A stretch of 64,000 bases of DNA from Flectonema sp. DT1601 (taxonomy: Eukaryota): positions 434,001 through 498,000 of the forward strand of contig OZ025804.1 of assembly GCA_964019425.1 (NCBI GenBank), in the 5' to 3' direction. The notes beneath the pieces are model-generated. The model ran no database searches. It was not told where the DNA came from and saw nothing but the letters and a program-made list of their open reading frames with translations. A program made the position numbers and the translations under genes. Within the stretch, counting starts at the first letter, position 1. Every line of letters begins with the position of its first letter. Below are positions 27,441 to 52,953 of this stretch, in pieces.

Positions 27441-27604
27441 TTTTTTTTTTTTTGAGGGAGGTGAGAGGTAGGTATGGCAGGAGGGTAAACCCTCGGAACC
27501 AGCGATCCTTATGTTACATGAGTGTGCGCTAAAAAGATAAACTGCATCACAAGTTTTGGGCCGGTTTTCTAGGTCCTACTATATCTGTCGCCGAAGCGAA
27601 GAAG
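27441..27604 (-). mobile_element. Poly(A)-tailed ~150-nt structured retroelement 3' end / SINE-like sequence, copy 1
   Basis: T13 then sequence homologous to 52753-52900, including 27 identical nt (27487-27513 = 52784-52810). Confidence 0.7.
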
Positions 27605-27878
27605 AGAAAAATGAAAAAACAATATTTGTGGTTGTTTGTGTACAGGGATTGCTTAATAACATGACTTTTAGGTAAAAAATTGTAATGCGTGTAAAAATCG
27701 TGTCTTTTTTTTTCTCTGCTTTACAATTCTTGAAAGAAGAAAAATAAAGTGGAAAGACAAGGAGGGATGTGACTAAATAAAGGTTTTTGCTAAAATGAAA
27801 ACATTTCTTTAAAGAAAGTTTAATTATAATAAGTTTTCTTTTTTATTTATTTATTATAATAAGAAAAGTTTTTTTTCA

Positions 27879-28840: not shown

Positions 28841-30221
28841 TTTTTATTTTATTTTTATTTTGTCACATCTTTCTTGTCTCTCTTTCATTTTGCTTTTTTT
28901 ATATTCTGAGCACCAACGCTCTTCTTATTTTTTAACAAGACAAAGATACGCGTGCAACTGTCAGGAGTCCGTTAGAGGACCTCCACGGATCGGCAGCTCC
29001 TGACACTGTGCTTGCAAAGCGAGAGATCAACGTAAAGACGGTGGCCAAAGACCACTGGGTCACCTGCGAGCCGAAAGGTTGTCCTCATAGAATTAGGAGA
29101 TAAGGAGAAAGAATGGAGAAGATGTATACTAAAAGATAACAGTATTGACTTGTTTAACTACAGCTGAGTGCTGTCAGGTTTGAACCCATTGCTCCATGTT
29201 CCATATGAATCCGGCAAGGGCATGCAAGTTACGTGTAGCAAACATGAACGGAAGACTCAAGGCAGTCTTCGAGATTCTTGCTTCCTCAATAATTTCACCA
29301 ATAGTTCCTTTTCGAATGTACATCAGCGCCGCAGCAGTGCATTCCAGTATCAGATGACGTGGTGAAGACTCCGTTCTTTGACAAAAGAGACACATCCGAG
29401 GAACTTCTTTAATTCTAAGTAAGTGATGAGATCCAGTCCTGAATCTAGCTATTCTAATTTCTGATGACCTCAGCATGTTAGAGGGGTAACGAGCAGCCTT
29501 GTAACCCCCGGTGGCATCCAGGTATTGTCTCAGCATGACACGCTTGACAGGGGGCCTCGCAGTCTCAGCACCTTCAAGCATCCTGCCAAATAGCTTCCTA
29601 CCGGTTTCGCGTGCAACCCTCGACTTGTGCAAAGAAGTCCATTTTTGAATTAACTGGCTTCCCATCCAAATCTTTAGAAGCTGCCTTAGCCAGTTTATCA
29701 GCCTTGTCGTGAGGATCAATCCCTACATGCGATGGGATGAATTGAAGATGGACAAAGGTCCCCAGTTGTTTGATTTTGTTCAGTATCGACAGCGAATTCA
29801 CCTTCCTTTGAGCCACAATACCTCCCTTCAGTTCATCTAAATTCGACTTCGAGTCACTAAATATCCTTGTGATCCCGCAGGTAGATCCAAACGGCGAGTT
29901 TATCTTGCCAATTGCATAAACCAATAATTTCAGAGCTATCTGTTCAGACTTGAAACTACTTTCGGTGGCCACAAGTCTGGATGCCCTGGTACACTCTACC
30001 GGTAAGACCTGCACGGCCGCTGCACCTCAACTCGTCTCGTTCCTTCGTGTCTACGCTCGTCTTCCTGTCTTTCTTACCGTTCCCGTTCTCTGTGTGTGCT
30101 TTCTGGTTCCTTTCCTTCCGTGAGAGTATTTCTCCTCCCATCTGGTTGCAAAATTTAGTCGGTCTCTGCCGTCCGAGACCGCCGCGTGGAGGCATTTTGT
30201 GTGGTCCCTAAACCCGTAAGG
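28841..30221 (-). mobile_element. Defective (frameshifted, probably internally deleted) non-LTR retrotransposon of another family
   Basis: RNase H motifs SSFKSEQIAL, IFSDSKS, FIPSHVGI...DKADKLAK; RFRTG...CLFC...HLILEC in another frame; (TAAAA)-type tail at 28841-28861. Confidence 0.8.
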
Positions 30222-30284
30222 TTTTTTTTTTTTTTTTTTTTTGTGTGCACCACGACCCGTGAGTCTGTGATGCTGATTGCGCTG

Positions 30285-33076
<2,792 letters not shown>

Positions 33077-33080
<4 letters not shown>

Positions 33081-34942
33081 GATTGGCCAGTGTTGTTCCT
33101 GTTGGTCGCACTTGTAGTAATCTTGTTCATACCAAGATTGTTCTCAATCCTCTTGACAGCTTCTATTAGCGAAGTGATGGCTGTCGCCATGTTGTTGTTG
33201 GCTGCTTCGTTCTTTTTCGTAGTTTGCACCAGGGTTTCTACAATCCCGGTTATCTGTGCCATGCCTTCATCAAGTCGAACTTGCATGTCCTTCACTTCTT
33301 TCTGAAGACGTTCGATTGTCTCGTTCGTTTTCTCTCTCAGGCTGTTGACGTTGTTTTCTACAACCTGAACTTCGGCCGTTGGTTTCTTCGTTGTCGGGAG
33401 TGACCTCTTGACCGCGGCTGCGTACGATGTTCTAGCCTCACGGTACTTAACTACAACGGGTTTCGCTGTTTCCTTCGCCTTCACTTCTGTTTCTAACTTT
33501 TCAATGAGGATGACAATATCTCCACACTGTACAAACCTTGATTCTGGTTTCTTGTCCAGTGCGATGATAAAGTCACCTCTATCCATCCTTATGAACTTTG
33601 ACTTCAGTCCTATCTCCAATAGGATATTCCGAAGTCTGTTACCCCAGCTGTAAGGTGCTCCACTGAGACGGTGAAGCCCTTCGCCAAACACTGTGGATGC
33701 ATATTTACCAGCACCCTTTCTTACTTTATCAACATCCTTTTGATAAACCACCCTCAATCCAATCTTGCCATGAATGATGGTGAGTCCATGGCAGAGGTCA
33801 TGTTGGGCTTTAAGTATGCCAACTGCCTCTTCGTTTGTTGTCTTGCGGTCCAGCCACACTGTGGTGTACTGAGTGGGTGTCTGTCCCGCCACTGATTTAA
33901 TCCGGAAATAAACATTTCCTATTCCGGAGTTTCTTAAAAGTGCGACAGCTGCTTCCACATCGTTTGGGAGAACAGTGAGTTCTACGAAGTCTTTGCCAAC
34001 GTATCTGTAGGAGCGTTGATCGACTCTTCCGTGTTGTGCCACAACAGCTTTGACAATTGCTGTTACAGCTGCCGGGTTTTGGACCTGTGACTTGGTCAAC
34101 TCTTTAGTTGTTATCCACGCAATTAATTCGTGGGTCACCGGTGCGTTGATCTTCTTGGCGATCGTTAGAGTTGGCCGGTGGATCGTGCCAGACAGAGCAA
34201 CGAACCACCAGCTTCTTATTTTTAATTGCCCATCGAATTGGACAGGTGTCTGTATCTGACTGCAGTCAGTTGCGTGTTGTAGGGCACGTTTTGGAGGTGG
34301 TCGTGTGAACACCATCGTCAGTTGCTTCGTTTTACTGGCCTTTTCGAAGTAGTCTTCGTCCAGGCTTCTTGCTTGTTGAGATAATGCAAGTATAATGCCG
34401 TTGGTCTTGCTGTTGAGGGTCTCAGTTGGCTGGAGTATTTTGCATTTAAAATGCTCCTTGTTTAGCTTCGGTGGTGGTCCATTCATAATCACCGTCGATC
34501 TTCTTTGTGCCTCTTTGATTTGAGGGCTTGATTGGGGTGCCTCATTTGACGGAGGGCTTTGATCTGCTTTTAAAAATTTACTTCCATGTGCCTCGATATT
34601 TTGAGGGCTTATTTGAATTGCCTCTTTGTTTTGAGGGCTTGTCTTTGTTTGAGTTGCCTCCTTGTTTTGAGGGCTTGCTTGAAATGCTGCGGGAGGTCCT
34701 ACTGCGGTCACCTCTACTGCGATTCCTTCCGGTACTTCTGGAGAGTCCATCTCCATTTCTTCCTCTGATACTTCTGGTGATTCTCCCATCACCACGTCCT
34801 CGTCTTCTTGCTGTTGGGTCTCTTCTTCTTCCCGGATCTCATTTCTGGCTTGTTCCCTCATCATCTTCGCCTCTTTCCTTTCTCTTTCTCTCCTTTCTGC
34901 AGCCCTTCTATCTTGCGGACGCATTGCTTTCTTTCCAGCCAT
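33077..34942 (-). CDS. LINE ORF1 (basic/acidic N-terminus, SPQ repeats, C-terminal coiled coil; no CCHC knuckle seen), copy A
   Basis: First ATG at 34942; stop overlaps ORF2 start (ATGA). Confidence 0.85.
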
Positions 34943-34966
34943 TTTAATTTTTTTAAGGTTCGGAAT

Positions 34967-35017
34967 CAATAAAGTACAGAATAAAATAAAACTGCAATAA
35001 AAGAAAAAGAAAAGAAC
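34967..35017 (-). promoter_or_regulatory. Polypyrimidine tract + CAG acceptor followed by spliced-leader-like 15-mer TTCTGTACTTTATTG (also 41428-41478, 47909-47959)
   Basis: Minus strand reads gttcttttctttttcttttattgCAGttttattttaTTCTGTACTTTATTG, ending 24 nt before the ORF1 ATG. Confidence 0.7.
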
Positions 35018-35643
35018 GCAACATCACCTTCGGTGTTGTCGCAGTGTCTCATCCAACACTCCTGTCTCCTTCTTCTCCTATTCTCCTTAAAAATTTCTCT
35101 TGAGGGCAGGCCTTCGGGCTGTTCAAGTGGTCTTTGACCACCGCTCTAGTTATATGCTCGACTCTTTGTTTTTCCTTATCGATGGTAGGAATGGTAACCG
35201 AATTAGCTTCGTGTGTCCAATTTCAAGGACGCGTGACCATTTATTTTTTTTCCGTTGCCGCTCTTCTTACGTCCTCAGGCGGAGCCTACCTATGTTTCCC
35301 GTGTTTTCCAATTTGTCAGACTTAAGTCAAAAAGAAAGTATAAAAGAAAGACAAAACATAGAAGTGAAAAGAACAAAAATTTTTTTTTTTTGAGTGCATC
35401 ACGACCCGTGAGTCTGTGATGCTGATTGCGCTGTTAGGCGCGGTTGTTCTTTTTCTTTCTTTCTTTCTTACTTTCTTTGTTTTGGGGGTTGGGGGTGGGA
35501 ATCCCGTAGGCTTCGTATCTCCTTTCTTTGTTTTGATAACTTAAAACTAATACTACATAATTAATTGTCCACTTGGACGACTTCAGATGTGTTGCAATGA
35601 TGCCTTCAATGTTGATATTCGAAATGTCGATGTTTTAATAATA

Positions 35644-38600
35644 CTACCGTCCTAATAGTTGTGCCAGTCTGTCTAAGGTTGTGACAAATCCAGTCATCTG
35701 CTGTTGATTCGCAGGTAAGTAGCAGTCCTCCAGCTGGCATGCTTCCTCTCCCTTGTCATTCATCATGTGACTGATGTATTTTTCCCTCAAGGTTTCTATA
35801 CACCAATGTTCGCATATAAATAATACATGATGTGCTGTCGCCTTTCCAAGTTTACAGAAAAAGCACAGCTCGTTCAGTCCTTTGATTATCAGAGATCTAC
35901 AATGTCCCACTCTAAAGCGTGACATCAGTACTTCCTCTGGTCGTGTTAGAGCTTCGATGTACGGAGGGTGTCTTACCTCTCCCGGTCCGATCCAGTTCTC
36001 CCGTTTTCTCCGCTTGTGAAACGTCATCAATGTTCCCATGTCAAGTTGAGTGGGCAGTTGTTTAATAATAACATCTTCGTGAGGTGGATCTTCCTTCAGG
36101 CCTGCAGCGAATTTCGCCAGTTGGTCCGCTACTTCGTTGTACCGCACGTTTCTGTGTGCCGGTACATACTGCATGTTGACTTGGATTCCCTTCTTCTCCA
36201 GTTTCATTGCCAACTTCCAGATCTTTTTGTTCATTGGGGACCTTTGTTTATATGGCCCTTGTTCCAATGCCTGCATGACTGACATCGAATCAGTCAACAG
36301 GTGCGTCGTTGTTGTTAGAGATTCATGTTCATCCTCCGCCACCTGAACTAAATTTTCCAACGCCAGTTTTACTGCAATCTGCTCGGTCCTATAAGAGGAA
36401 CCCGCTACTGGTATTTTATATCCAAGTAGACGCATCTTGCTTTCTTTTACTATGACCACAGCGGCAGCCGAGTCTGTCATGTAAGTCTCGGATTTGTGTC
36501 TTATCGACCCGTCAGTGTAGACTTTCATCTCGTGAGTTGGTAGTTCAGCTTCTCGCTGTTCAGCCTCTTCCTTGTTGCTTGAATATGTGAATCTCATCGC
36601 ACTAGTACTTTTCCATGGAGGGAGAGTGTAGTGTTCTGGGTTCACTTCCAGGTTGGTAATGCTCCGGTAGTTGTCAAGTCCAGGGACACCAGAGACATAG
36701 TCTATCCAGACATTCCATCCCCATTTTGATTTTTGGTATAATTCTGAACTCCCTGTTCTCGTCAGCTTGCGAGTCGGCAGGAACGGACTCAATTTGAAAC
36801 GTTCATAAGTTCTACACATCTTATACTGGATGTGTTCCTTTAGTCTTGGCGTATCGGCTTCTTTGTAAAGTCTCTGTAGTTTGGTGCTCCGCAGACATCC
36901 AGTTACCAGCCTCACTGCCCTGTTTACCAGTAATTCCAGTTGTTCGAAGCACTCTTTTGGTAACATCCAAGCAAAGCTTTCAACACCATAAAGCACCCTT
37001 GCTAACACCACCGTCACCAGTATACTAATGAGTGTCCTCTTTCTGCAGCCTATCCTAGTGAGTCTAACCAACAAGCCTAGACCCTTGGAAGCAGCTGTCA
37101 TCATCTTTTGAATTTGCGACTTAAAGGTTAACTTCTCGTCATAATGTACACCCAGGTACCGCACGGTATTCGTCTTGTGAACTTTTCGTCCAACCGCATA
37201 GGCAAATCCGTGTAGTCCGGGCCCCACTCTTTCCAGCATCTTATCTATTTCTGCCTTGTTGTGGACTTTCTTCAGTTGTGGGAAGCGGGCACTCATCTTC
37301 ATTGTTTTCAGTACCGCCGGTTTGTTCGGTAGCTTGACTTTGATCTTATGTTTTGGAACGACGTACAGGTGAGTGATGGCGAATTCTTCTTTTGAAACTA
37401 CAGTTGTTGAGTTATCATCCTTCACAAGGTTACACCACATATTTAAATGTGTGTTCCTCCGAGTATACCACTACTGGGGACTTGTCGTGAGTTCCACTTG
37501 GCCTCACGTGAATGTATTCCGTCTTGCCAGGGTTCTTATTGATTTTGATGTGTGAGTCAAGTGCCCACCTTTCAAATATTTTGACTGCGTTGTTAACCTT
37601 GTTTTCTAAACAGCTGACAGTGCCTGCGGTTATTACTATTCCAACATCATCTGCAAAGACAGTCGGTTCGTACATCTCTAGTTTATCTATCAAATCGTTT
37701 ATGAAGATAGAGAATAACTGGGGTCCCAGCACGCTTCCTTGTGGTACTCCTACTCGAATGTTCCGGAATGCTCCCTTCACTCCATTCACCCTTGTTGAAA
37801 TCTTCCTACTAGTCAAGTAGTTTTGAACCCACCGTAGATATTTCGTTGGTAGTCCTATTTTGGACATCTTATTTAGAAGAGTTACCGGTTGAACTGCATC
37901 AAAGGCTTTTTGTAGGTCGAAGGTGATTAATATCGCTTCTTCTCCCATTGCCTTGGCACTTTTGAGTTTGTCTGTAACTATACAGAGATTTTCAATGGAA
38001 TCCCGTCCTCGTTTGTAGGCTGCTTGCCTCGGATTCATTCTGTCTTTCAACAGGTGGTGCATCCGTTCTACGACCATTCTTTCAAAGAGTTTCGAGACGG
38101 TCGAGGTTAGTGCTATCGGTCTGTACGATAGGACTTGTTTCTTGTCTTTATCAGGTTTCAGTATGGGTATTACCATTCCACTTTTCCAGCACCTGGGTAC
38201 TGCTGATCGTTGCCATGAGAGGTTGAATAGTCTTAGTAGTTGCTCGAGGAAAGCTTTTGGAAGTTGTTTTAACATCGAGTTCCAGATGTGGTCAGGTCCA
38301 GGTGCCTTCTTCTCCTTTGTTTTTGAAATTTGTCGTTCCAGTTCAGGCATTCCAAATTCCACCGAGTTGTCATCAGGTATTCCTTGTAAGGTTGGTTCAC
38401 CATCTTCGAATTTGAATTGGTCTGCGTATGTTTTGGTGAAGACATCTGCCATCTCCCGCGAGTCGGTTAATTCCTTCTCACCGTCGACAATCTTAGTAAT
38501 TGAATGGTCCATCATTCTACCTTCCAGTTGTTTAACTTTTCTAAAGGCCCATCGGTAGTCCATTCCAGTCATGTCGCACTCAATGATCTTCTGTTTGATC

Positions 38601-39541
38601 ATGTTGATACCTCTTTCAATTGCTTCTGAGTCTGTCTTATCAGGGTCAGTCTCTGCCATTAAATCTTCCAATTCTGAATCCCTCACAGCGAAGGTACTAC
38701 TTGACTTTTTGTTGTAGCCTGGGATGGCCCTACTCGCTGCTCTCAGAATCTCGTTGTTGATCCTATTAGCAAGTTTCTGCACATTCTTAATTCTTTCTAA
38801 TTTGGGCGCTGCCCTTTCCAACAATATTTTATAATAATTCCAATCGGCACAATGCCACTTCCATTTCCATGTCCCAGAACTCTCTTTTGAATATTCATCT
38901 GTTTTGATATCTTCGATTGTCAGTTTGAGTGGCAGGTGATCGCTGCCCCATCCCTTCATGAGTTCGATTTGTGCATCTATTGAAATATCTAATGCAATTA
39001 CATCCGGAGAAGCTGAGCTTTGTGGTCTTGTGTGTTGTTGAGGTTTATTTAGAATTTTAATTGTTGCTTCTAGTGACCAATCGTAGAAGCTGTTACCAGT
39101 GGTGTTCGTATTACCATTTGACCAAGTTGAATGGTGTCCATTAATGTCACCCGCAATCAATGTGCCGGGCTCTGTTTTGAACTTCCAGGTTGTTGCCTTG
39201 ATTTCAGGCGGGTGGTAAACATTGTGAATTGTCAATGGCGGATTAGATTGAAGTACTACTGTTAATATCTCAGTTTGGTCATGTGAGATGTCGGGGTGTT
39301 TTAATATTAACTTATTTAAATCATTTCTGACCAGAGTGACGAGTCCTCGATGACCTGACTTGATGGTGCTGTCTCTCCTGTGGATTGAATATCCTTCAAT
39401 AGCGAAGTGTTTTTCTTTTGATAACCACGTTTCCTGCAGTAGTACTACTTCAGGCTTTTCTTCTTTCAGTGCCCAGTTCAATCGAAAGTAATTTTCTGGT
39501 TTCAGAACTGAGCGAATGTTATTTGACCAAATCACAATCAT
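35644..39541 (-). pseudogene. LINE ORF2, split by 20-nt deletion into 703-aa and 598-aa frames
   Basis: ORF track plus direct comparison with 43890-43915. Confidence 0.9.
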
Positions 39542-41403
39542 GATTGGCCAGTGTTGTTCCTGTTGGTCGCACTTGTAGTAATCTTGTTCATACCAAGATT
39601 GTTCTCAATCCTCTTGACAGCTTCTATTAGCGAAGTGATGGCTGTCGCCATGTTGTTGTTGGCTGCTTCGTTCTTTTTCGTAGTTTGCACCAGGGTTTCT
39701 ACAATCCCGGTTATCTGTGCCATGCCTTCATCAAGTCGAACTTGCATGTCCTTCACTTCTTTCTGAAGACGTTCGATTGTCTCGTTCGTTTTCTCTCTCA
39801 GGCTGTTGACGTTGTTTTCTACAACCTGAACTTCGGCCGTTGGTTTCTTCGTTGTCGGGAGTGACCTCTTGACCGCGGCTGCGTACGATGTTCTAGCCTC
39901 ACGGTACTTAACTACAACGGGTTTCGCTGTTTCCTTCGCCTTCACTTCTGTTTCTAACTTTTCAATGAGGATGACAATATCTCCACACTGTACAAACCTT
40001 GATTCTGGTTTCTTGTCCAGTGCGATGATAAAGTCACCTCTATCCATCCTTATGAACTTTGACTTCAGTCCTATCTCCAATAGGATATTCCGAAGTCTGT
40101 TACCCCAGCTGTAAGGTGCTCCACTGAGACGGTGAAGCCCTTCGCCAAACACTGTGGATGCATATTTACCAGCACCCTTTCTTACTTTATCAACATCCTT
40201 TTGATAAACCACCCTCAATCCAATCTTGCCATGAATGATGGTGAGTCCATGGCAGAGGTCATGTTGGGCTTTAAGTATGCCAACTGCCTCTTCGTTTGTT
40301 GTCTTGCGGTCCAGCCACACTGTGGTGTACTGAGTGGGTGTCTGTCCCGCCACTGATTTAATCCGGAAATAAACATTTCCTATTCCGGAGTTTCTTAAAA
40401 GTGCGACAGCTGCTTCCACATCGTTTGGGAGAACAGTGAGTTCTACGAAGTCTTTGCCAACGTATCTGTAGGAGCGTTGATCGACTCTTCCGTGTTGTGC
40501 CACAACAGCTTTGACAATTGCTGTTACAGCTGCCGGGTTTTGGACCTGTGACTTGGTCAACTCTTTAGTTGTTATCCACGCAATTAATTCGTGGGTCACC
40601 GGTGCGTTGATCTTCTTGGCGATCGTTAGAGTTGGCCGGTGGATCGTGCCAGACAGAGCAACGAACCACCAGCTTCTTATTTTTAATTGCCCATCGAATT
40701 GGACAGGTGTCTGTATCTGACTGCAGTCAGTTGCGTGTTGTAGGGCACGTTTTGGAGGTGGTCGTGTGAACACCATCGTCAGTTGCTTCGTTTTACTGGC
40801 CTTTTCGAAGTAGTCTTCGTCCAGGCTTCTTGCTTGTTGAGATAATGCAAGTATAATGCCGTTGGTCTTGCTGTTGAGGGTCTCAGTTGGCTGGAGTATT
40901 TTGCATTTAAAATGCTCCTTGTTTAGCTTCGGTGGTGGTCCATTCATAATCACCGTCGATCTTCTTTGTGCCTCTTTGATTTGAGGGCTTGATTGGGGTG
41001 CCTCATTTGACGGAGGGCTTTGATCTGCTTTTAAAAATTTACTTCCATGTGCCTCGATATTTTGAGGGCTTATTTGAATTGCCTCTTTGTTTTGAGGGCT
41101 TGTCTTTGTTTGAGTTGCCTCCTTGTTTTGAGGGCTTGCTTGAAATGCTGCGGGAGGTCCTACTGCGGTCACCTCTACTGCGATTCCTTCCGGTACTTCT
41201 GGAGAGTCCATCTCCATTTCTTCCTCTGATACTTCTGGTGATTCTCCCATCACCACGTCCTCGTCTTCTTGCTGTTGGGTCTCTTCTTCTTCCCGGATCT
41301 CATTTCTGGCTTGTTCCCTCATCATCTTCGCCTCTTTCCTTTCTCTTTCTCTCCTTTCTGCAGCCCTTCTATCTTGCGGACGCATTGCTTTCTTTCCAGC
41401 CAT
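39538..41403 (-). CDS. LINE ORF1, copy B
   Basis: Translation identical to copy A. Confidence 0.85.
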   Translation of the reverse strand: MAGKKAMRPQDRRAAERRERERKEAKMMREQARNEIREEEETQQQEDEDVVMGESPEVSEEEMEMDSPEVPEGIAVEVTAVGPPAAFQASPQNKEATQTKTSPQNKEAIQISPQNIEAHGSKFLKADQSPPSNEAPQSSPQIKEAQRRSTVIMNGPPPKLNKEHFKCKILQPTETLNSKTNGIILALSQQARSLDEDYFEKASKTKQLTMVFTRPPPKRALQHATDCSQIQTPVQFDGQLKIRSWWFVALSGTIHRPTLTIAKKINAPVTHELIAWITTKELTKSQVQNPAAVTAIVKAVVAQHGRVDQRSYRYVGKDFVELTVLPNDVEAAVALLRNSGIGNVYFRIKSVAGQTPTQYTTVWLDRKTTNEEAVGILKAQHDLCHGLTIIHGKIGLRVVYQKDVDKVRKGAGKYASTVFGEGLHRLSGAPYSWGNRLRNILLEIGLKSKFIRMDRGDFIIALDKKPESRFVQCGDIVILIEKLETEVKAKETAKPVVVKYREARTSYAAAVKRSLPTTKKPTAEVQVVENNVNSLREKTNETIERLQKEVKDMQVRLDEGMAQITGIVETLVQTTKKNEAANNNMATAITSLIEAVKRIENNLGMNKITTSATNRNNTGQS

Positions 41404-42104: not shown

Positions 42105-45100
42105 CTACCGTCCTAATAGTTGTGCCAGTCTGTCTAAGGTTGTGACAAATCCAGTCATCTGCTGTTGATTCGCAGGTAAGTAGCAGTCCTCCAGCTGGCA
42201 TGCTTCCTCTCCCTTGTCATTCATCATGTGACTGATGTATTTTTCCCTCAAGGTTTCTATACACCAATGTTCGCATATAAATAATACATGATGTGCTGTC
42301 GCCTTTCCAAGTTTACAGAAAAAGCACAGCTCGTTCAGTCCTTTGATTATCAGAGATCTACAATGTCCCACTCTAAAGCGTGACATCAGTACTTCCTCTG
42401 GTCGTGTTAGAGCTTCGATGTACGGAGGGTGTCTTACCTCTCCCGGTCCGATCCAGTTCTCCCGTTTTCTCCGCTTGTGAAACGTCATCAATGTTCCCAT
42501 GTCAAGTTGAGTGGGCAGTTGTTTAATAATAACATCTTCGTGAGGTGGATCTTCCTTCAGGCCTGCAGCGAATTTCGCCAGTTGGTCCGCTACTTCGTTG
42601 TACCGCACGTTTCTGTGTGCCGGTACATACTGCATGTTGACTTGGATTCCCTTCTTCTCCAGTTTCATTGCCAACTTCCAGATCTTTTTGTTCATTGGGG
42701 ACCTTTGTTTATATGGCCCTTGTTCCAATGCCTGCATGACTGACATCGAATCAGTCAACAGGTGCGTCGTTGTTGTTAGAGATTCATGTTCATCCTCCGC
42801 CACCTGAACTAAATTTTCCAACGCCAGTTTTACTGCAATCTGCTCGGTCCTATAAGAGGAACCCGCTACTGGTATTTTATATCCAAGTAGACGCATCTTG
42901 CTTTCTTTTACTATGACCACAGCGGCAGCCGAGTCTGTCATGTAAGTCTCGGATTTGTGTCTTATCGACCCGTCAGTGTAGACTTTCATCTCGTGAGTTG
43001 GTAGTTCAGCTTCTCGCTGTTCAGCCTCTTCCTTGTTGCTTGAATATGTGAATCTCATCGCACTAGTACTTTTCCATGGAGGGAGAGTGTAGTGTTCTGG
43101 GTTCACTTCCAGGTTGGTAATGCTCCGGTAGTTGTCAAGTCCAGGGACACCAGAGACATAGTCTATCCAGACATTCCATCCCCATTTTGATTTTTGGTAT
43201 AATTCTGAACTCCCTGTTCTCGTCAGCTTGCGAGTCGGCAGGAACGGACTCAATTTGAAACGTTCATAAGTTCTACACATCTTATACTGGATGTGTTCCT
43301 TTAGTCTTGGCGTATCGGCTTCTTTGTAAAGTCTCTGTAGTTTGGTGCTCCGCAGACATCCAGTTACCAGCCTCACTGCCCTGTTTACCAGTAATTCCAG
43401 TTGTTCGAAGCACTCTTTTGGTAACATCCAAGCAAAGCTTTCAACACCATAAAGCACCCTTGCTAACACCACCGTCACCAGTATACTAATGAGTGTCCTC
43501 TTTCTGCAGCCTATCCTAGTGAGTCTAACCAACAAGCCTAGACCCTTGGAAGCAGCTGTCATCATCTTTTGAATTTGCGACTTAAAGGTTAACTTCTCGT
43601 CATAATGTACACCCAGGTACCGCACGGTATTCGTCTTGTGAACTTTTCGTCCAACCGCATAGGCAAATCCGTGTAGTCCGGGCCCCACTCTTTCCAGCAT
43701 CTTATCTATTTCTGCCTTGTTGTGGACTTTCTTCAGTTGTGGGAAGCGGGCACTCATCTTCATTGTTTTCAGTACCGCCGGTTTGTTCGGTAGCTTGACT
43801 TTGATCTTATGTTTTGGAACGACGTACAGGTGAGTGATGGCGAATTCTTCTTTTGAAACTACAGTTGTTGAGTTATCATCCTTCACAAGGTTACTCATTT
43901 GTTCTGCCGTGGCCACCACATATTTAAATGTGTGTTCCTCCGAGTATACCACTACTGGGGACTTGTCGTGAGTTCCACTTGGCCTCACGTGAATGTATTC
44001 CGTCTTGCCAGGGTTCTTATTGATTTTGATGTGTGAGTCAAGTGCCCACCTTTCAAATATTTTGACTGCGTTGTTAACCTTGTTTTCTAAACAGCTGACA
44101 GTGCCTGCGGTTATTACTATTCCAACATCATCTGCAAAGACAGTCGGTTCGTACATCTCTAGTTTATCTATCAAATCGTTTATGAAGATAGAGAATAACT
44201 GGGGTCCCAGCACGCTTCCTTGTGGTACTCCTACTCGAATGTTCCGGAATGCTCCCTTCACTCCATTCACCCTTGTTGAAATCTTCCTACTAGTCAAGTA
44301 GTTTTGAACCCACCGTAGATATTTCGTTGGTAGTCCTATTTTGGACATCTTATTTAGAAGAGTTACCGGTTGAACTGCATCAAAGGCTTTTTGTAGGTCG
44401 AAGGTGATTAATATCGCTTCTTCTCCCATTGCCTTGGCACTTTTGAGTTTGTCTGTAACTATACAGAGATTTTCAATGGAATCCCGTCCTCGTTTGTAGG
44501 CTGCTTGCCTCGGATTCATTCTGTCTTTCAACAGGTGGTGCATCCGTTCTACGACCATTCTTTCAAAGAGTTTCGAGACGGTCGAGGTTAGTGCTATCGG
44601 TCTGTACGATAGGACTTGTTTCTTGTCTTTATCAGGTTTCAGTATGGGTATTACCATTCCACTTTTCCAGCACCTGGGTACTGCTGATCGTTGCCATGAG
44701 AGGTTGAATAGTCTTAGTAGTTGCTCGAGGAAAGCTTTTGGAAGTTGTTTTAACATCGAGTTCCAGATGTGGTCAGGTCCAGGTGCCTTCTTCTCCTTTG
44801 TTTTTGAAATTTGTCGTTCCAGTTCAGGCATTCCAAATTCCACCGAGTTGTCATCAGGTATTCCTTGTAAGGTTGGTTCACCATCTTCGAATTTGAATTG
44901 GTCTGCGTATGTTTTGGTGAAGACATCTGCCATCTCCCGCGAGTCGGTTAATTCCTTCTCACCGTCGACAATCTTAGTAATTGAATGGTCCATCATTCTA
45001 CCTTCCAGTTGTTTAACTTTTCTAAAGGCCCATCGGTAGTCCATTCCAGTCATGTCGCACTCAATGATCTTCTGTTTGATCATGTTGATACCTCTTTCAA

Positions 45101-46022
45101 TTGCTTCTGAGTCTGTCTTATCAGGGTCAGTCTCTGCCATTAAATCTTCCAATTCTGAATCCCTCACAGCGAAGGTACTACTTGACTTTTTGTTGTAGCC
45201 TGGGATGGCCCTACTCGCTGCTCTCAGAATCTCGTTGTTGATCCTATTAGCAAGTTTCTGCACATTCTTAATTCTTTCTAATTTGGGCGCTGCCCTTTCC
45301 AACAATATTTTATAATAATTCCAATCGGCACAATGCCACTTCCATTTCCATGTCCCAGAACTCTCTTTTGAATATTCATCTGTTTTGATATCTTCGATTG
45401 TCAGTTTGAGTGGCAGGTGATCGCTGCCCCATCCCTTCATGAGTTCGATTTGTGCATCTATTGAAATATCTAATGCAATTACATCCGGAGAAGCTGAGCT
45501 TTGTGGTCTTGTGTGTTGTTGAGGTTTATTTAGAATTTTAATTGTTGCTTCTAGTGACCAATCGTAGAAGCTGTTACCAGTGGTGTTCGTATTACCATTT
45601 GACCAAGTTGAATGGTGTCCATTAATGTCACCCGCAATCAATGTGCCGGGCTCTGTTTTGAACTTCCAGGTTGTTGCCTTGATTTCAGGCGGGTGGTAAA
45701 CATTGTGAATTGTCAATGGCGGATTAGATTGAAGTACTACTGTTAATATCTCAGTTTGGTCATGTGAGATGTCGGGGTGTTTTAATATTAACTTATTTAA
45801 ATCATTTCTGACCAGAGTGACGAGTCCTCGATGACCTGACTTGATGGTGCTGTCTCTCCTGTGGATTGAATATCCTTCAATAGCGAAGTGTTTTTCTTTT
45901 GATAACCACGTTTCCTGCAGTAGTACTACTTCAGGCTTTTCTTCTTTCAGTGCCCAGTTCAATCGAAAGTAATTTTCTGGTTTCAGAACTGAGCGAATGT
46001 TATTTGACCAAATCACAATCAT
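42105..46022 (-). CDS. LINE ORF2 polyprotein: AP endonuclease, reverse transcriptase, RNase H, C-terminal Cys/His finger
   Basis: LQETW, GDINGH, SDH (APE); KAPGPD, YRPIALTS, DLQKAFD, GVPQGSVLGP, FADD, YLG (RT); YTDGS, TEQIA, TDS, VPAH...NEVADQLAK (RNase H); CFFC...HVLFIC. Confidence 0.95.
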   Translation of the reverse strand: MIVIWSNNIRSVLKPENYFRLNWALKEEKPEVVLLQETWLSKEKHFAIEGYSIHRRDSTIKSGHRGLVTLVRNDLNKLILKHPDISHDQTEILTVVLQSNPPLTIHNVYHPPEIKATTWKFKTEPGTLIAGDINGHHSTWSNGNTNTTGNSFYDWSLEATIKILNKPQQHTRPQSSASPDVIALDISIDAQIELMKGWGSDHLPLKLTIEDIKTDEYSKESSGTWKWKWHCADWNYYKILLERAAPKLERIKNVQKLANRINNEILRAASRAIPGYNKKSSSTFAVRDSELEDLMAETDPDKTDSEAIERGINMIKQKIIECDMTGMDYRWAFRKVKQLEGRMMDHSITKIVDGEKELTDSREMADVFTKTYADQFKFEDGEPTLQGIPDDNSVEFGMPELERQISKTKEKKAPGPDHIWNSMLKQLPKAFLEQLLRLFNLSWQRSAVPRCWKSGMVIPILKPDKDKKQVLSYRPIALTSTVSKLFERMVVERMHHLLKDRMNPRQAAYKRGRDSIENLCIVTDKLKSAKAMGEEAILITFDLQKAFDAVQPVTLLNKMSKIGLPTKYLRWVQNYLTSRKISTRVNGVKGAFRNIRVGVPQGSVLGPQLFSIFINDLIDKLEMYEPTVFADDVGIVITAGTVSCLENKVNNAVKIFERWALDSHIKINKNPGKTEYIHVRPSGTHDKSPVVVYSEEHTFKYVVATAEQMSNLVKDDNSTTVVSKEEFAITHLYVVPKHKIKVKLPNKPAVLKTMKMSARFPQLKKVHNKAEIDKMLERVGPGLHGFAYAVGRKVHKTNTVRYLGVHYDEKLTFKSQIQKMMTAASKGLGLLVRLTRIGCRKRTLISILVTVVLARVLYGVESFAWMLPKECFEQLELLVNRAVRLVTGCLRSTKLQRLYKEADTPRLKEHIQYKMCRTYERFKLSPFLPTRKLTRTGSSELYQKSKWGWNVWIDYVSGVPGLDNYRSITNLEVNPEHYTLPPWKSTSAMRFTYSSNKEEAEQREAELPTHEMKVYTDGSIRHKSETYMTDSAAAVVIVKESKMRLLGYKIPVAGSSYRTEQIAVKLALENLVQVAEDEHESLTTTTHLLTDSMSVMQALEQGPYKQRSPMNKKIWKLAMKLEKKGIQVNMQYVPAHRNVRYNEVADQLAKFAAGLKEDPPHEDVIIKQLPTQLDMGTLMTFHKRRKRENWIGPGEVRHPPYIEALTRPEEVLMSRFRVGHCRSLIIKGLNELCFFCKLGKATAHHVLFICEHWCIETLREKYISHMMNDKGEEACQLEDCYLPANQQQMTGFVTTLDRLAQLLGR

Positions 46023-47884
46023 GATTGGCCAGTGTTGTTCCTGTTGGTCGCACTTGTAGTAATCTTGTTCATACCAAGATTGTTCTCAATCCTCTTGACA
46101 GCTTCTATTAGCGAAGTGATGGCTGTCGCCATGTTGTTGTTGGCTGCTTCGTTCTTTTTCGTAGTTTGCACCAGGGTTTCTACAATCCCGGTTATCTGTG
46201 CCATGCCTTCATCAAGTCGAACTTGCATGTCCTTCACTTCTTTCTGAAGACGTTCGATTGTCTCGTTCGTTTTCTCTCTCAGGCTGTTGACGTTGTTTTC
46301 TACAACCTGAACTTCGGCCGTTGGTTTCTTCGTTGTCGGGAGTGACCTCTTGACCGCGGCTGCGTACGATGTTCTAGCCTCACGGTACTTAACTACAACG
46401 GGTTTCGCTGTTTCCTTCGCCTTCACTTCTGTTTCTAACTTTTCAATGAGGATGACAATATCTCCACACTGTACAAACCTTGATTCTGGTTTCTTGTCCA
46501 GTGCGATGATAAAGTCACCTCTATCCATCCTTATGAACTTTGACTTCAGTCCTATCTCCAATAGGATATTCCGAAGTCTGTTACCCCAGCTGTAAGGTGC
46601 TCCACTGAGACGGTGAAGCCCTTCGCCAAACACTGTGGATGCATATTTACCAGCACCCTTTCTTACTTTATCAACATCCTTTTGATAAACCACCCTCAAT
46701 CCAATCTTGCCATGAATGATGGTGAGTCCATGGCAGAGGTCATGTTGGGCTTTAAGTATGCCAACTGCCTCTTCGTTTGTTGTCTTGCGGTCCAGCCACA
46801 CTGTGGTGTACTGAGTGGGTGTCTGTCCCGCCACTGATTTAATCCGGAAATAAACATTTCCTATTCCGGAGTTTCTTAAAAGTGCGACAGCTGCTTCCAC
46901 ATCGTTTGGGAGAACAGTGAGTTCTACGAAGTCTTTGCCAACGTATCTGTAGGAGCGTTGATCGACTCTTCCGTGTTGTGCCACAACAGCTTTGACAATT
47001 GCTGTTACAGCTGCCGGGTTTTGGACCTGTGACTTGGTCAACTCTTTAGTTGTTATCCACGCAATTAATTCGTGGGTCACCGGTGCGTTGATCTTCTTGG
47101 CGATCGTTAGAGTTGGCCGGTGGATCGTGCCAGACAGAGCAACGAACCACCAGCTTCTTATTTTTAATTGCCCATCGAATTGGACAGGTGTCTGTATCTG
47201 ACTGCAGTCAGTTGCGTGTTGTAGGGCACGTTTTGGAGGTGGTCGTGTGAACACCATCGTCAGTTGCTTCGTTTTACTGGCCTTTTCGAAGTAGTCTTCG
47301 TCCAGGCTTCTTGCTTGTTGAGATAATGCAAGTATAATGCCGTTGGTCTTGCTGTTGAGGGTCTCAGTTGGCTGGAGTATTTTGCATTTAAAATGCTCCT
47401 TGTTTAGCTTCGGTGGTGGTCCATTCATAATCACCGTCGATCTTCTTTGTGCCTCTTTGATTTGAGGGCTTGATTGGGGTGCCTCATTTGACGGAGGGCT
47501 TTGATCTGCTTTTAAAAATTTACTTCCATGTGCCTCGATATTTTGAGGGCTTATTTGAATTGCCTCTTTGTTTTGAGGGCTTGTCTTTGTTTGAGTTGCC
47601 TCCTTGTTTTGAGGGCTTGCTTGAAATGCTGCGGGAGGTCCTACTGCGGTCACCTCTACTGCGATTCCTTCCGGTACTTCTGGAGAGTCCATCTCCATTT
47701 CTTCCTCTGATACTTCTGGTGATTCTCCCATCACCACGTCCTCGTCTTCTTGCTGTTGGGTCTCTTCTTCTTCCCGGATCTCATTTCTGGCTTGTTCCCT
47801 CATCATCTTCGCCTCTTTCCTTTCTCTTTCTCTCCTTTCTGCAGCCCTTCTATCTTGCGGACGCATTGCTTTCTTTCCAGCCAT
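46019..47884 (-). CDS. LINE ORF1, copy C
   Basis: Translation identical to copies A and B. Confidence 0.85.
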   Translation of the reverse strand: MAGKKAMRPQDRRAAERRERERKEAKMMREQARNEIREEEETQQQEDEDVVMGESPEVSEEEMEMDSPEVPEGIAVEVTAVGPPAAFQASPQNKEATQTKTSPQNKEAIQISPQNIEAHGSKFLKADQSPPSNEAPQSSPQIKEAQRRSTVIMNGPPPKLNKEHFKCKILQPTETLNSKTNGIILALSQQARSLDEDYFEKASKTKQLTMVFTRPPPKRALQHATDCSQIQTPVQFDGQLKIRSWWFVALSGTIHRPTLTIAKKINAPVTHELIAWITTKELTKSQVQNPAAVTAIVKAVVAQHGRVDQRSYRYVGKDFVELTVLPNDVEAAVALLRNSGIGNVYFRIKSVAGQTPTQYTTVWLDRKTTNEEAVGILKAQHDLCHGLTIIHGKIGLRVVYQKDVDKVRKGAGKYASTVFGEGLHRLSGAPYSWGNRLRNILLEIGLKSKFIRMDRGDFIIALDKKPESRFVQCGDIVILIEKLETEVKAKETAKPVVVKYREARTSYAAAVKRSLPTTKKPTAEVQVVENNVNSLREKTNETIERLQKEVKDMQVRLDEGMAQITGIVETLVQTTKKNEAANNNMATAITSLIEAVKRIENNLGMNKITTSATNRNNTGQS

Positions 47885-48321: not shown

Positions 48322-51300
48322 TTTTTTTTTTTTGAGTGCATCACGACCCGTGAGTCTGTGATGCTGATTGCGCTGTTAGGCGCGGTTGTTCTTTTTCTTT
48401 CTTTCTTTCTTACTTTCTTTGTTTTGGGGGTTGGGGGTGGGAATCCCGTAGGCTTCGTATCTCCTTTCTTTGTTTTGATAACTTAAAACTAATACTACAT
48501 AATTAATTGTCCACTTGGACGACTTCAGATGTGTTGCAATGATGCCTTCAATGTTGATATTCGAAATGTCGATGTTTTAATAATACTACCGTCCTAATAG
48601 TTGTGCCAGTCTGTCTAAGGTTGTGACAAATCCAGTCATCTGCTGTTGATTCGCAGGTAAGTAGCAGTCCTCCAGCTGGCATGCTTCCTCTCCCTTGTCA
48701 TTCATCATGTGACTGATGTATTTTTCCCTCAAGGTTTCTATACACCAATGTTCGCATATAAATAATACATGATGTGCTGTCGCCTTTCCAAGTTTACAGA
48801 AAAAGCACAGCTCGTTCAGTCCTTTGATTATCAGAGATCTACAATGTCCCACTCTAAAGCGTGACATCAGTACTTCCTCTGGTCGTGTTAGAGCTTCGAT
48901 GTACGGAGGGTGTCTTACCTCTCCCGGTCCGATCCAGTTCTCCCGTTTTCTCCGCTTGTGAAACGTCATCAATGTTCCCATGTCAAGTTGAGTGGGCAGT
49001 TGTTTAATAATAACATCTTCGTGAGGTGGATCTTCCTTCAGGCCTGCAGCGAATTTCGCCAGTTGGTCCGCTACTTCGTTGTACCGCACGTTTCTGTGTG
49101 CCGGTACATACTGCATGTTGACTTGGATTCCCTTCTTCTCCAGTTTCATTGCCAACTTCCAGATCTTTTTGTTCATTGGGGACCTTTGTTTATATGGCCC
49201 TTGTTCCAATGCCTGCATGACTGACATCGAATCAGTCAACAGGTGCGTCGTTGTTGTTAGAGATTCATGTTCATCCTCCGCCACCTGAACTAAATTTTCC
49301 AACGCCAGTTTTACTGCAATCTGCTCGGTCCTATAAGAGGAACCCGCTACTGGTATTTTATATCCAAGTAGACGCATCTTGCTTTCTTTTACTATGACCA
49401 CAGCGGCAGCCGAGTCTGTCATGTAAGTCTCGGATTTGTGTCTTATCGACCCGTCAGTGTAGACTTTCATCTCGTGAGTTGGTAGTTCAGCTTCTCGCTG
49501 TTCAGCCTCTTCCTTGTTGCTTGAATATGTGAATCTCATCGCACTAGTACTTTTCCATGGAGGGAGAGTGTAGTGTTCTGGGTTCACTTCCAGGTTGGTA
49601 ATGCTCCGGTAGTTGTCAAGTCCAGGGACACCAGAGACATAGTCTATCCAGACATTCCATCCCCATTTTGATTTTTGGTATAATTCTGAACTCCCTGTTC
49701 TCGTCAGCTTGCGAGTCGGCAGGAACGGACTCAATTTGAAACGTTCATAAGTTCTACACATCTTATACTGGATGTGTTCCTTTAGTCTTGGCGTATCGGC
49801 TTCTTTGTAAAGTCTCTGTAGTTTGGTGCTCCGCAGACATCCAGTTACCAGCCTCACTGCCCTGTTTACCAGTAATTCCAGTTGTTCGAAGCACTCTTTT
49901 GGTAACATCCAAGCAAAGCTTTCAACACCATAAAGCACCCTTGCTAACACCACCGTCACCAGTATACTAATGAGTGTCCTCTTTCTGCAGCCTATCCTAG
50001 TGAGTCTAACCAACAAGCCTAGACCCTTGGAAGCAGCTGTCATCATCTTTTGAATTTGCGACTTAAAGGTTAACTTCTCGTCATAATGTACACCCAGGTA
50101 CCGCACGGTATTCGTCTTGTGAACTTTTCGTCCAACCGCATAGGCAAATCCGTGTAGTCCGGGCCCCACTCTTTCCAGCATCTTATCTATTTCTGCCTTG
50201 TTGTGGACTTTCTTCAGTTGTGGGAAGCGGGCACTCATCTTCATTGTTTTCAGTACCGCCGGTTTGTTCGGTAGCTTGACTTTGATCTTATGTTTTGGAA
50301 CGACGTACAGGTGAGTGATGGCGAATTCTTCTTTTGAAACTACAGTTGTTGAGTTATCATCCTTCACAAGGTTACTCATTTGTTCTGCCGTGGCCACCAC
50401 ATATTTAAATGTGTGTTCCTCCGAGTATACCACTACTGGGGACTTGTCGTGAGTTCCACTTGGCCTCACGTGAATGTATTCCGTCTTGCCAGGGTTCTTA
50501 TTGATTTTGATGTGTGAGTCAAGTGCCCACCTTTCAAATATTTTGACTGCGTTGTTAACCTTGTTTTCTAAACAGCTGACAGTGCCTGCGGTTATTACTA
50601 TTCCAACATCATCTGCAAAGACAGTCGGTTCGTACATCTCTAGTTTATCTATCAAATCGTTTATGAAGATAGAGAATAACTGGGGTCCCAGCACGCTTCC
50701 TTGTGGTACTCCTACTCGAATGTTCCGGAATGCTCCCTTCACTCCATTCACCCTTGTTGAAATCTTCCTACTAGTCAAGTAGTTTTGAACCCACCGTAGA
50801 TATTTCGTTGGTAGTCCTATTTTGGACATCTTATTTAGAAGAGTTACCGGTTGAACTGCATCAAAGGCTTTTTGTAGGTCGAAGGTGATTAATATCGCTT
50901 CTTCTCCCATTGCCTTGGCACTTTTGAGTTTGTCTGTAACTATACAGAGATTTTCAATGGAATCCCGTCCTCGTTTGTAGGCTGCTTGCCTCGGATTCAT
51001 TCTGTCTTTCAACAGGTGGTGCATCCGTTCTACGACCATTCTTTCAAAGAGTTTCGAGACGGTCGAGGTTAGTGCTATCGGTCTGTACGATAGGACTTGT
51101 TTCTTGTCTTTATCAGGTTTCAGTATGGGTATTACCATTCCACTTTTCCAGCACCTGGGTACTGCTGATCGTTGCCATGAGAGGTTGAATAGTCTTAGTA
51201 GTTGCTCGAGGAAAGCTTTTGGAAGTTGTTTTAACATCGAGTTCCAGATGTGGTCAGGTCCAGGTGCCTTCTTCTCCTTTGTTTTTGAAATTTGTCGTTC

Positions 51301-52708
51301 CAGTTCAGGCATTCCAAATTCCACCGAGTTGTCATCAGGTATTCCTTGTAAGGTTGGTTCACCATCTTCGAATTTGAATTGGTCTGCGTATGTTTTGGTG
51401 AAGACATCTGCCATCTCCCGCGAGTCGGTTAATTCCTTCTCACCGTCGACAATCTTAGTAATTGAATGGTCCATCATTCTACCTTCCAGTTGTTTAACTT
51501 TTCTAAAGGCCCATCGGTAGTCCATTCCAGTCATGTCGCACTCAATGATCTTCTGTTTGATCATGTTGATACCTCTTTCAATTGCTTCTGAGTCTGTCTT
51601 ATCAGGGTCAGTCTCTGCCATTAAATCTTCCAATTCTGAATCCCTCACAGCGAAGGTACTACTTGACTTTTTGTTGTAGCCTGGGATGGCCCTACTCGCT
51701 GCTCTCAGAATCTCGTTGTTGATCCTATTAGCAAGTTTCTGCACATTCTTAATTCTTTCTAATTTGGGCGCTGCCCTTTCCAACAATATTTTATAATAAT
51801 TCCAATCGGCACAATGCCACTTCCATTTCCATGTCCCAGAACTCTCTTTTGAATATTCATCTGTTTTGATATCTTCGATTGTCAGTTTGAGTGGCAGGTG
51901 ATCGCTGCCCCATCCCTTCATGAGTTCGATTTGTGCATCTATTGAAATATCTAATGCAATTACATCCGGAGAAGCTGAGCTTTGTGGTCTTGTGTGTTGT
52001 TGAGGTTTATTTAGAATTTTAATTGTTGCTTCTAGTGACCAATCGTAGAAGCTGTTACCAGTGGTGTTCGTATTACCATTTGACCAAGTTGAATGGTGTC
52101 CATTAATGTCACCCGCAATCAATGTGCCGGGCTCTGTTTTGAACTTCCAGGTTGTTGCCTTGATTTCAGGCGGGTGGTAAACATTGTGAATTGTCAATGG
52201 CGGATTAGATTGAAGTACTACTGTTAATATCTCAGTTTGGTCATGTGAGATGTCGGGGTGTTTTAATATTAACTTATTTAAATCATTTCTGACCAGAGTG
52301 ACGAGTCCTCGATGACCTGACTTGATGGTGCTGTCTCTCCTGTGGATTGAATATCCTTCAATAGCGAAGTGTTTTTCTTTTGATAACCACGTTTCCTGCA
52401 GTAGTACTACTTCAGGCTTTTCTTCTTTCAGTGCCCAGTTCAATCGAAAGTAATTTTCTGGTTTCAGAACTGAGCGAATGTTATTTGACCAAATCACAAT
52501 CATGATTGGCCAGTGTTGTTCCTGTTGGTCGCACTTGTAGTAATCTTGTTCATACCAAGATTGTTCTCAATCCTCTTGACAGCTTCTATTAGCGAAGTGA
52601 TGGCTGTCGCCATGTTGTTGTTGGCTGCTTCGTTCTTTTTCGTAGTTTGCACCAGGGTTTCTACAATCCCGGTTATCTGTGCCATGCCTTCATCAAGTCG
52701 AACTTGCA
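48322..52708 (-). mobile_element. Tandem LINE copy D, 5'-truncated inside ORF1
   Basis: Homology stops after aagtcgaacttgca at ~52708, followed by aaaacaaag and T35. Confidence 0.95.
48586..52503 (-). CDS. LINE ORF2 polyprotein, intact, copy D
   Basis: 1305 aa, same translation as copy C. Confidence 0.93.
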   Translation of the reverse strand: MIVIWSNNIRSVLKPENYFRLNWALKEEKPEVVLLQETWLSKEKHFAIEGYSIHRRDSTIKSGHRGLVTLVRNDLNKLILKHPDISHDQTEILTVVLQSNPPLTIHNVYHPPEIKATTWKFKTEPGTLIAGDINGHHSTWSNGNTNTTGNSFYDWSLEATIKILNKPQQHTRPQSSASPDVIALDISIDAQIELMKGWGSDHLPLKLTIEDIKTDEYSKESSGTWKWKWHCADWNYYKILLERAAPKLERIKNVQKLANRINNEILRAASRAIPGYNKKSSSTFAVRDSELEDLMAETDPDKTDSEAIERGINMIKQKIIECDMTGMDYRWAFRKVKQLEGRMMDHSITKIVDGEKELTDSREMADVFTKTYADQFKFEDGEPTLQGIPDDNSVEFGMPELERQISKTKEKKAPGPDHIWNSMLKQLPKAFLEQLLRLFNLSWQRSAVPRCWKSGMVIPILKPDKDKKQVLSYRPIALTSTVSKLFERMVVERMHHLLKDRMNPRQAAYKRGRDSIENLCIVTDKLKSAKAMGEEAILITFDLQKAFDAVQPVTLLNKMSKIGLPTKYLRWVQNYLTSRKISTRVNGVKGAFRNIRVGVPQGSVLGPQLFSIFINDLIDKLEMYEPTVFADDVGIVITAGTVSCLENKVNNAVKIFERWALDSHIKINKNPGKTEYIHVRPSGTHDKSPVVVYSEEHTFKYVVATAEQMSNLVKDDNSTTVVSKEEFAITHLYVVPKHKIKVKLPNKPAVLKTMKMSARFPQLKKVHNKAEIDKMLERVGPGLHGFAYAVGRKVHKTNTVRYLGVHYDEKLTFKSQIQKMMTAASKGLGLLVRLTRIGCRKRTLISILVTVVLARVLYGVESFAWMLPKECFEQLELLVNRAVRLVTGCLRSTKLQRLYKEADTPRLKEHIQYKMCRTYERFKLSPFLPTRKLTRTGSSELYQKSKWGWNVWIDYVSGVPGLDNYRSITNLEVNPEHYTLPPWKSTSAMRFTYSSNKEEAEQREAELPTHEMKVYTDGSIRHKSETYMTDSAAAVVIVKESKMRLLGYKIPVAGSSYRTEQIAVKLALENLVQVAEDEHESLTTTTHLLTDSMSVMQALEQGPYKQRSPMNKKIWKLAMKLEKKGIQVNMQYVPAHRNVRYNEVADQLAKFAAGLKEDPPHEDVIIKQLPTQLDMGTLMTFHKRRKRENWIGPGEVRHPPYIEALTRPEEVLMSRFRVGHCRSLIIKGLNELCFFCKLGKATAHHVLFICEHWCIETLREKYISHMMNDKGEEACQLEDCYLPANQQQMTGFVTTLDRLAQLLGR

Positions 52709-52717: not shown

Positions 52718-52757
<40 letters not shown>

Positions 52758-52905
52758 ATAGAGAGGCAGGTAAGTGGGAGAGCAAACCCTCGGAACCAGC
52801 GATCCTTATGATGTATGAATGCGTGCTAAAAATATAAACCACATCAACAGTCTTAAGCTGGTTTTACAGGTCCCACGATTACCCGTCGCCATGGCGAAGA
52901 AAAGA
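52718..52905 (-). mobile_element. Poly(A)-tailed ~150-nt structured retroelement 3' end / SINE-like sequence, copy 2
   Basis: T35 then homolog of 27454-27604. Confidence 0.7.
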
Positions 52906-52953
52906 TAAGTAAATTATAACTCATGATGGCTCACAAGGTCACGTTTTGTTTTG

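Follow-up and report, generated by a model that had tools for sequence, protein, structure and literature searches.

In genomes that are transcribed as long polycistrons, it is a standing question how a LINE comes by a 5′ end that is defined and translatable. For trypanosomatids, the answer in the literature combines an internal promoter, a ribozyme, and unspliced RNA. The ingi/L1Tc clade carries the Pr77 promoter and an HDV-like ribozyme (PMC1874656, PMC4035085, in their available portions), and the accessible text of PMC1874656 describes L1Tc RNA as unspliced, calls this general for trypanosomatid LINEs, and reports a spliced leader (SL) on none of 19 RIME/ingi cDNAs. The CRE/SLACS/CZAR and NeSL elements are non-LTR elements tied to the SL, as is the element described here; they encode a restriction-like endonuclease and insert into SL genes (PMC3636483, accessible part). 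In D. papillatum, genes lie in one-way clusters and essentially all mRNAs bear an SL (PMC10161547, cited passages). SL exon sequences have been tabulated, and GT marks the exon boundary in SL RNA genes (PMC3795323, available part of the table).

Here, we analyzed a 64,000-nucleotide stretch of DNA (the window) holding a tandem LINE array in which ORF1 is preceded by the end of an SL exon. The presence of SL DNA before ORF1 suggests that the LINE is likely copied from host-style spliced messages, and our findings point to a solution opposite to the trypanosomatid one in free-living relatives.

All nine host ORFs of at least 150 aa within positions 1–29100 lie on one strand, which also carries the LINE array. 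Among the matches listed, the named sequences closest to ORF2 belong to three Flectonema neradi transcript clusters (44–58% identity), followed by matches at 21–43% identity whose upper end comes from short stretches; none of the 90 matches listed with names is ingi/L1Tc. The host eIF3a matches eIF3a chains of 1350–1382 residues at E 9e-70 and chain 7ase_8, which we take to be from a trypanosome structure, at E 1e-6. Judged from these similarities, the host is most likely a diplonemid, probably a marine one. The initial annotation of this DNA had assumed an SL-using host, and the ORF2 relatives do place it in an SL-using group. That the host uses the particular SL discussed below would follow from this grouping together with the SL read from the translation of a sister copy (P0173). 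No SL RNA gene was found in the window. Elsewhere on the minus strand, 1102–6732 holds tandem genes for DOMON-domain surface proteins with internal repeats of ~600 nt.

The repeat unit of the array measures 6481 nt and consists of ORF1, ORF2, a terminal hairpin, and a 12-nt A tail. At one end of the array (52708) lies a 5′-truncated copy, at the other a deleted copy that stops at 30231; a self-alignment of the array spanning 15,276 nt shows a single 20-nt gap and not one mismatch. With APE, RT, and RNase H domains, an ORF1, an A tail, and 5′-truncated copies, the element is an APE-type LINE. The array is composite, and no target-site duplication was found at its ends. Beyond its own family, ORF1 has no relatives among 1.84 billion representatives (7 matches). 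Searches with an ORF1 alignment against JGI metagenomes (601 pattern matches) and an ORF2 alignment against IMG/VR (68 matches) yielded no confirmed hits. In the last copy, ~650 nt of (GAAA)n at 30290–30940 join the middle of ORF2 to a short (AAGA)n of the 3′ UTR, and four positions in its final 103 nt set it apart from the other copies. A SINE-like A-tailed repeat of ~170 nt occurs at 27441–27610 and 52740–52908 (78% identical), and copy D is inserted behind its tail.

Table 1. Features of the LINE array and its surroundings, in window coordinates
Feature	Position	Strand	Basis or remark
Remnant of a different LINE family (RNase H and C-terminus)	29174..30050	minus	22–31% identity to ORF2 families
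Predicted HDV-like ribozyme (P1, P1.1 GG, P2, P3, L3, P4, CUAA)	30149..30208	minus	Rfam CPEB3 E 0.56 and pairing descriptor
ORF2 copy shortened by a deletion that reaches into (GAAA)n	30285-33080	minus	
ORF1, 621 aa, without a Pfam family	33077..34942	minus	also 39538-41403 and 46019-47884
A-run ahead of the ATG	34943..34954	minus	copies agree from here on
Spacer of 12 nt between relic and element body	34955..34966	minus	
SL-exon 3′-end relic, 15 nt, copy A	34967..34981	minus	exact match; SL table PMC3795323 (available part)
Polypyrimidine tract, TTTATTG, candidate acceptor CAG, T-rich 10 nt	34982..35020	minus	sequence read-out
Candidate acceptor CAG	34994-34992	minus	
Segment M, 359 nt of another repeat	35021..35379	minus	own polypyrimidine tract, AAG at 35323-35321
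3′ end of the preceding copy	35380..35422	minus	terminal hairpin (z -3.9) and 12-nt A tail
ORF2 copy frameshifted by a 20-nt deletion	35644-39541	minus	
ORF2, 1305 aa, APE endonuclease, RT, and RNase H	42105..46022	minus	second intact copy 48586-52503
Copy D, 5′-truncated within ORF1, without relic	48322..52708	minus	downstream of a short repeat's A tail

Read directly, the minus strand from 35017 to 34943 has the sequence given in the initial annotation, including an SL-like 15-mer separated by 24 nt from the ORF1 ATG (34942). Position, match length, and rarity all bear out that description, and the available part of the SL table (PMC3795323) agrees that a known SL exon end is matched over its last 15 nt. 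The match goes no further, as no 16-nt exact match to the SL 3′ end occurs in the window. The base directly 3′ of it is A, where GT would border the exon in an SL RNA gene; what the DNA holds is the SL exon end of the host group, with no intron GT behind it. The motif had been reported in copies A, B, and C and is indeed present in all three, with identical relics at 41442–41428 and 47923–47909 on the minus strand; as the three array copies are identical, however, they represent one event and a single observation.

The 15-mer had been proposed for counting against background. It occurs once in the 46,022-nt non-redundant window and in none of six local shuffles, and its 13-mer, allowing up to one mismatch, has three matches in the window against 0.12 expected, a number reached by none of 100 shuffles. 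Markov models based on intergenic DNA of the window put its chance at 6e-9 to 1e-8 per position, and a model with the base composition of the T-rich segment puts it at 5e-8; for the whole T-rich segment this amounts to about 1e-6 to 3e-6. About 1000 such stretches occur in 596 Gb of prokaryotic DNA. The 15-mer thus matches the SL exon end beyond chance and is likely a relic of it. The predicted fold of the relic segment is unremarkable (z 0.46).

The DNA upstream of the relic admits several readings. It had been described as a 19-mer of the SL interrupted by a 9-nt T/A insertion, and CAGTTT is present there. This feature is not distinctive, since CAGTTT lies less than 300 nt from the ATG in 6 of the 9 host ORFs, preceded by a pyrimidine-rich stretch in at least 4, so the interrupted 19-mer is one reading among several. 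The CAG at 34994–34992 is also 9–10 nt out of register with the SL. Under a reading with two relics, which was chosen post hoc, the joint 13-mer arises in 2e-5 of shuffles and its halves in 5.5% and 1.7%. On sequence grounds, the simplest reading would be that an acceptor region of host type adjoins a relic of 15 nt, while an expanded or doubled relic is possible; 34982–35020 may be either host target DNA or a decayed older relic. These 39 nt of pyrimidine tract and AG remain in place upstream of the relic; if the stretch travelled along with the LINE, the founding RNA would have been unspliced at 34992.

Further upstream, the sequence does not belong to the LINE. Segment M appears in contigs of two sequencing runs from two studies (X1 and X2) with different flanks on both sides. 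The truncated sister copies P0157 and P0185 sit in the pyrimidine tract of M, and their N-terminus spells the other upstream flank of M. Together, these observations identify M as a target repeat rather than the LINE's own UTR. The 437 nt ahead of ORF1, which the initial annotation took for the LINE's 5′ region, are composite, with 359 nt derived from another repeat. The element body itself appears to begin at the A-run: the X1 contig stops there, and in four copies with visible flanks the residues KKIK/KNK mark a shared start at this point. In contigs of four runs over 33900–36400, no SL joint was found, and 34955–35020 was covered only by short T-rich matches from other DNA, a gap to which we attach no weight.

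Sister copies of the element were read as stored protein records, in which in-frame upstream gene calls expose the flanks as N-terminal extensions. Of 56 records of the ORF1 family, 28 have a whole N-terminus and three of these bear an extension. One extension is SL (P0173), one is a piece of HDV ribozyme (P0139), and the third (P0172), six bases of other sequence, is too short to tell; that so few records show a flank, and just one of them SL, speaks against the SL reading. The N-terminus of P0173 reads MENNDSKATVSVLYCFCTLLLHPLLSVQKNKM. Within its stretch NDSKATVSVLYCFCTLL, 11–12 residues equal the translation of the whole diplonemid-type SL (loci L041 and L042), and 12–14 residues equal the translation of real tandems of SL plus 16 nt (L001, L005, L008, L010, L019, L025, L040). 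The segment NDSKATVSVLY corresponds to the translated whole diplonemid-type SL minus its first ~4 bases, and TVSVLYCFCTLL to the translation of an SL with a 16-nt relic attached, the relic beginning directly behind the SL-internal AG.

The P0173 subfamily is 79% identical to the ORF1 of the window, and its implied spacer is 22 nt, against 12 nt in the window, which indicates a separate capture and makes the spacer likely to be captured host flank. Read through its translation, P0173 is an independent SL capture with two rounds recorded. Known as a protein alone, it probably comes from the same assembly as the window. When short proteins were searched for the N-terminus of P0173, none of five candidates scored. 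SL capture in this LINE family, as proposed in the initial annotation, happened at least twice independently (window and P0173). Insertions of this family sit in pyrimidine tracts or follow A tails (P0157, P0185, P0165, P0187; the truncated copies P0165 and P0187 follow A tails), and such sites would supply acceptors.

Scanning JGI metagenomes for tandem SL ends returned 40 loci. Thirty-two of them form one series that carries the same 21-nt junction at contig ends next to unrelated ordinary genes, likely assembly or library artefacts, and a simple tandem repeat (L003) was also discarded. The seven loci kept, whose junctions may still be assembly chimeras, consist of a 5′-shortened SL plus a 16-nt relic, with at least 50 nt of other DNA upstream in five. 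In three of the seven, a non-LTR RT ORF lies directly behind the junction (Pfam RVT_1, E 1e-15 to 1e-29). The ORF of L005 begins 19 nt behind the junction, shows a C-terminal restriction-like motif by eye, and is followed by a (TTTTA)n tail; L010 combines RT with ubiquitin hydrolase; and L025 combines RT with zf-RVT and is located behind another such element. Two further contigs (L001 and L040) stop within 125 and 465 nt of the junction. The same tandem of SL and relic beginning after the internal AG is found in P0173 and all three RT loci. The RTs of these loci are 22–27% identical to one another and to ORF2, implying that the SL arrangement arose or persisted in several clades, and the shortening of the first SL at its 5′ side may reflect an RT that stops before the methylated cap. 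With P0173 and three unrelated elements sharing one junction, SL capture evidently recurs with reuse of the internal AG. The initial annotation had placed such reuse at AG 34992; reuse is borne out in P0173 and in other euglenozoan non-LTR elements, but not an SL origin of AG 34992 itself, given its register.

Several neighboring observations came from the same searches. L008 and L019 carry a tandem SL relic before related ORFs without a Pfam match (372 aa; 1320 aa with internal repeats) and may represent a further mobile element. At 53134–63855 on the minus strand, the window contains a 3573-aa ORF (60% GC) with OTU protease, RT, ubiquitin hydrolase, and RNase H1 N-terminal domains, whose RT region is related to those of L005 and L010; this giant CRE-like element lies outside any SL gene, and its 5′ end may lie past the window edge. 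Whole 39-nt euglenozoan SL exons, without a following GT, stand directly before viral ORFs at seven loci (L041, L042, L044, L046, L048, L043, L047), the first five of which share one 237,777-nt IMG/VR contig with a VLTF3 gene and a PCIF1-like gene. In six of the seven, an AAAAT(T)GA box, presumably the mimivirus-type early promoter, starts 25–26 nt ahead of the exon. These contigs look like giant viruses of diplonemids or kinetoplastids that encode the host SL in cis.

As the best explanation of these data as a whole, we consider it probable that the relic derives from an SL trans-spliced to the LINE's own RNA, which was then reverse transcribed and reinserted. Taken separately, an origin of the relic in the element's own trans-spliced RNA is very likely, and we lean towards the SL route being the usual one for this LINE family. 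Without a ribozyme in its unit and probably without a promoter of its own, the LINE shares the coding strand with the genes of a one-way array and would be transcribed together with them by read-through. The host would join a capped SL to whichever AG is upstream of ORF1, and the LINE RT would copy the resulting mRNA into the leader and halt part-way, after 15 nt here and about 35 nt in P0173. A new insertion would then consist of an SL end, a short piece of old flank, and the element body. Where a copied SL-internal AG lands behind a pyrimidine tract, it could be used in the next round and yield SL plus a 16-nt relic, a tandem which implies that a copy headed by SL went through transcription, splicing, and renewed copying. 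Both the read-through transcription and a present use of the candidate AG 34992 are proposed here from the layout of the locus.

An unlikely alternative puts an HDV-like ribozyme at the head of the master copy, as in ingi/L1Tc, and regards SL capture as real but incidental, occurring in copies from which the ribozyme was lost. The initial annotation had presented the SL as an alternative to a ribozyme, of which it found none. This holds for the 6481-nt unit, in which neither the pairing descriptor nor a similarity search found an HDV fold and which therefore lacks the Pr77-like ribozyme of ingi/L1Tc, but not for the surroundings. At 30208–30149, only 22 nt behind the last A tail of the array, a predicted nested double pseudoknot with the catalytic C in J4/2 gives the descriptor its sole match in the window, against none in five shuffles, and ribozyme sequence also precedes ORF1 sequence in P0139 and P0183. 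Yet the full ribozyme heads a deleted element of another LINE family and leads into that family's RNase H. The piece ahead of ORF1 in P0139 is broken, cut inside P4, with a translation that lacks the catalytic C and the 3′ strand of P2; in P0183 the ribozyme sequence joins ORF1 at residue 170 and implies a variant with another P4. Three differing joints resemble insertions near a ribozyme-bearing repeat, and the SL-plus-relic tandem indicates an SL-headed copy that was itself re-copied. A blastn search found no second copy of the ribozyme, and no contig from four runs over 29700–30290 crosses it. This HDV-like fold occurs in a likely diplonemid; the available part of the paper on ribozyme spread (PMC4035085) covers trypanosomatids. 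An additional LINE RNase H remnant lies at 28836–28375 (minus strand).

It is also quite improbable that the relic came from a host mRNA, either because the LINE landed next to a host retrocopy, 12 nt behind its SL relic, or because the RT switched template to the 5′ end of a host message. Spacers do vary between copies, and host relics may exist: a 14/16 match to the SL end at 18916–18901 (minus strand), 149 nt ahead of a DNA pol phi ORF, is possibly a worn one, its score being reached by 0.8% of shuffles and at one of nine genes. However, the two copies that bear SL are joined at one and the same point, the A-run ahead of a complete ORF1; three unrelated elements are arranged alike; and host genes in the window lack clear relics, the longest exact SL suffix at any of the nine being 9 nt.

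Targeting of SL RNA genes in the manner of CRE/SLACS/CZAR, with the motif as target DNA, is very improbable: such elements are known in Euglenozoa (PMC3636483, accessible part) and SLACS-like models occur in D. papillatum, but the window LINE has an APE rather than a restriction-like endonuclease, its exon end is joined to A and non-intron sequence instead of GT, its flanks vary, and the window has no SL gene into which it could have inserted. A chance match in T-rich DNA, to which a single event with T at 9 of 15 bases in a segment of 59% T might point, is hardly credible at about 3e-6 even under the segment's own composition and with a 17-residue SL translation in sister copy P0173.

Trans-splicing of the element's own RNA, the reading we prefer, allows a wider one, which we put forward tentatively and with slightly more doubt than confidence. 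In free-living Euglenozoa, several non-LTR clades may have dropped promoter and ribozyme and use SL trans-splicing for 5′ processing, with a self-renewing acceptor taken from the host leader and insertion behind activating pyrimidine tracts. The clades concerned are the APE–RNase H type described here and, in metagenomes, a CRE-like type and another restriction-endonuclease type. Stacked relics count transposition rounds.

In the open-licence PMC and bioRxiv literature, which excludes subscription papers, we found no description of an SL-headed euglenozoan LINE; the available parts of PMC8061765 and PMC4558846 added nothing on the subject. Seven supplements of the D. papillatum genome paper contain no SL motif and neither the term "spliced leader" nor "ribozyme", though its main supplementary text on repeats may fall outside these. 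Among described elements, ingi/L1Tc resembles the window LINE as an APE–RT–RNase H euglenozoan non-LTR element with an A tail, head-to-tail copies, and HDV-like ribozymes in the genome (PMC1874656, PMC4035085, available portions); the window LINE differs in its separate 621-aa ORF1, its SL relics, and a unit without ribozyme. Cer1 of C. elegans shares with the proposed cycle a retrotransposon RNA that is SL trans-spliced, but it is an LTR element, SL1 is found on a 2.4-kb sub-genomic RNA and not on the 8-kb RNA, and the accessible text does not mention SL in a DNA copy (PMC3315495). The parallel with dinoflagellate relict SLs, which the initial annotation had drawn, extends to both features seen here: in the cited passages on DinoSL–DinoRL retrogenes, an SL remnant is fixed in DNA via reverse transcription, as in the window LINE, and reuse of an internal acceptor gives a tandem of SL and truncated relic, as in P0173, L005, L010, and L025 (PMC12014239, PMC3942190). 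The cargo differs, being host genes copied in trans in dinoflagellates and an autonomous retroelement here, in Euglenozoa and with a 39-nt SL. Together, the relics show euglenozoan RTs copying capped SL mRNA into the leader, which is the step needed for dinoflagellate-style gene recycling.
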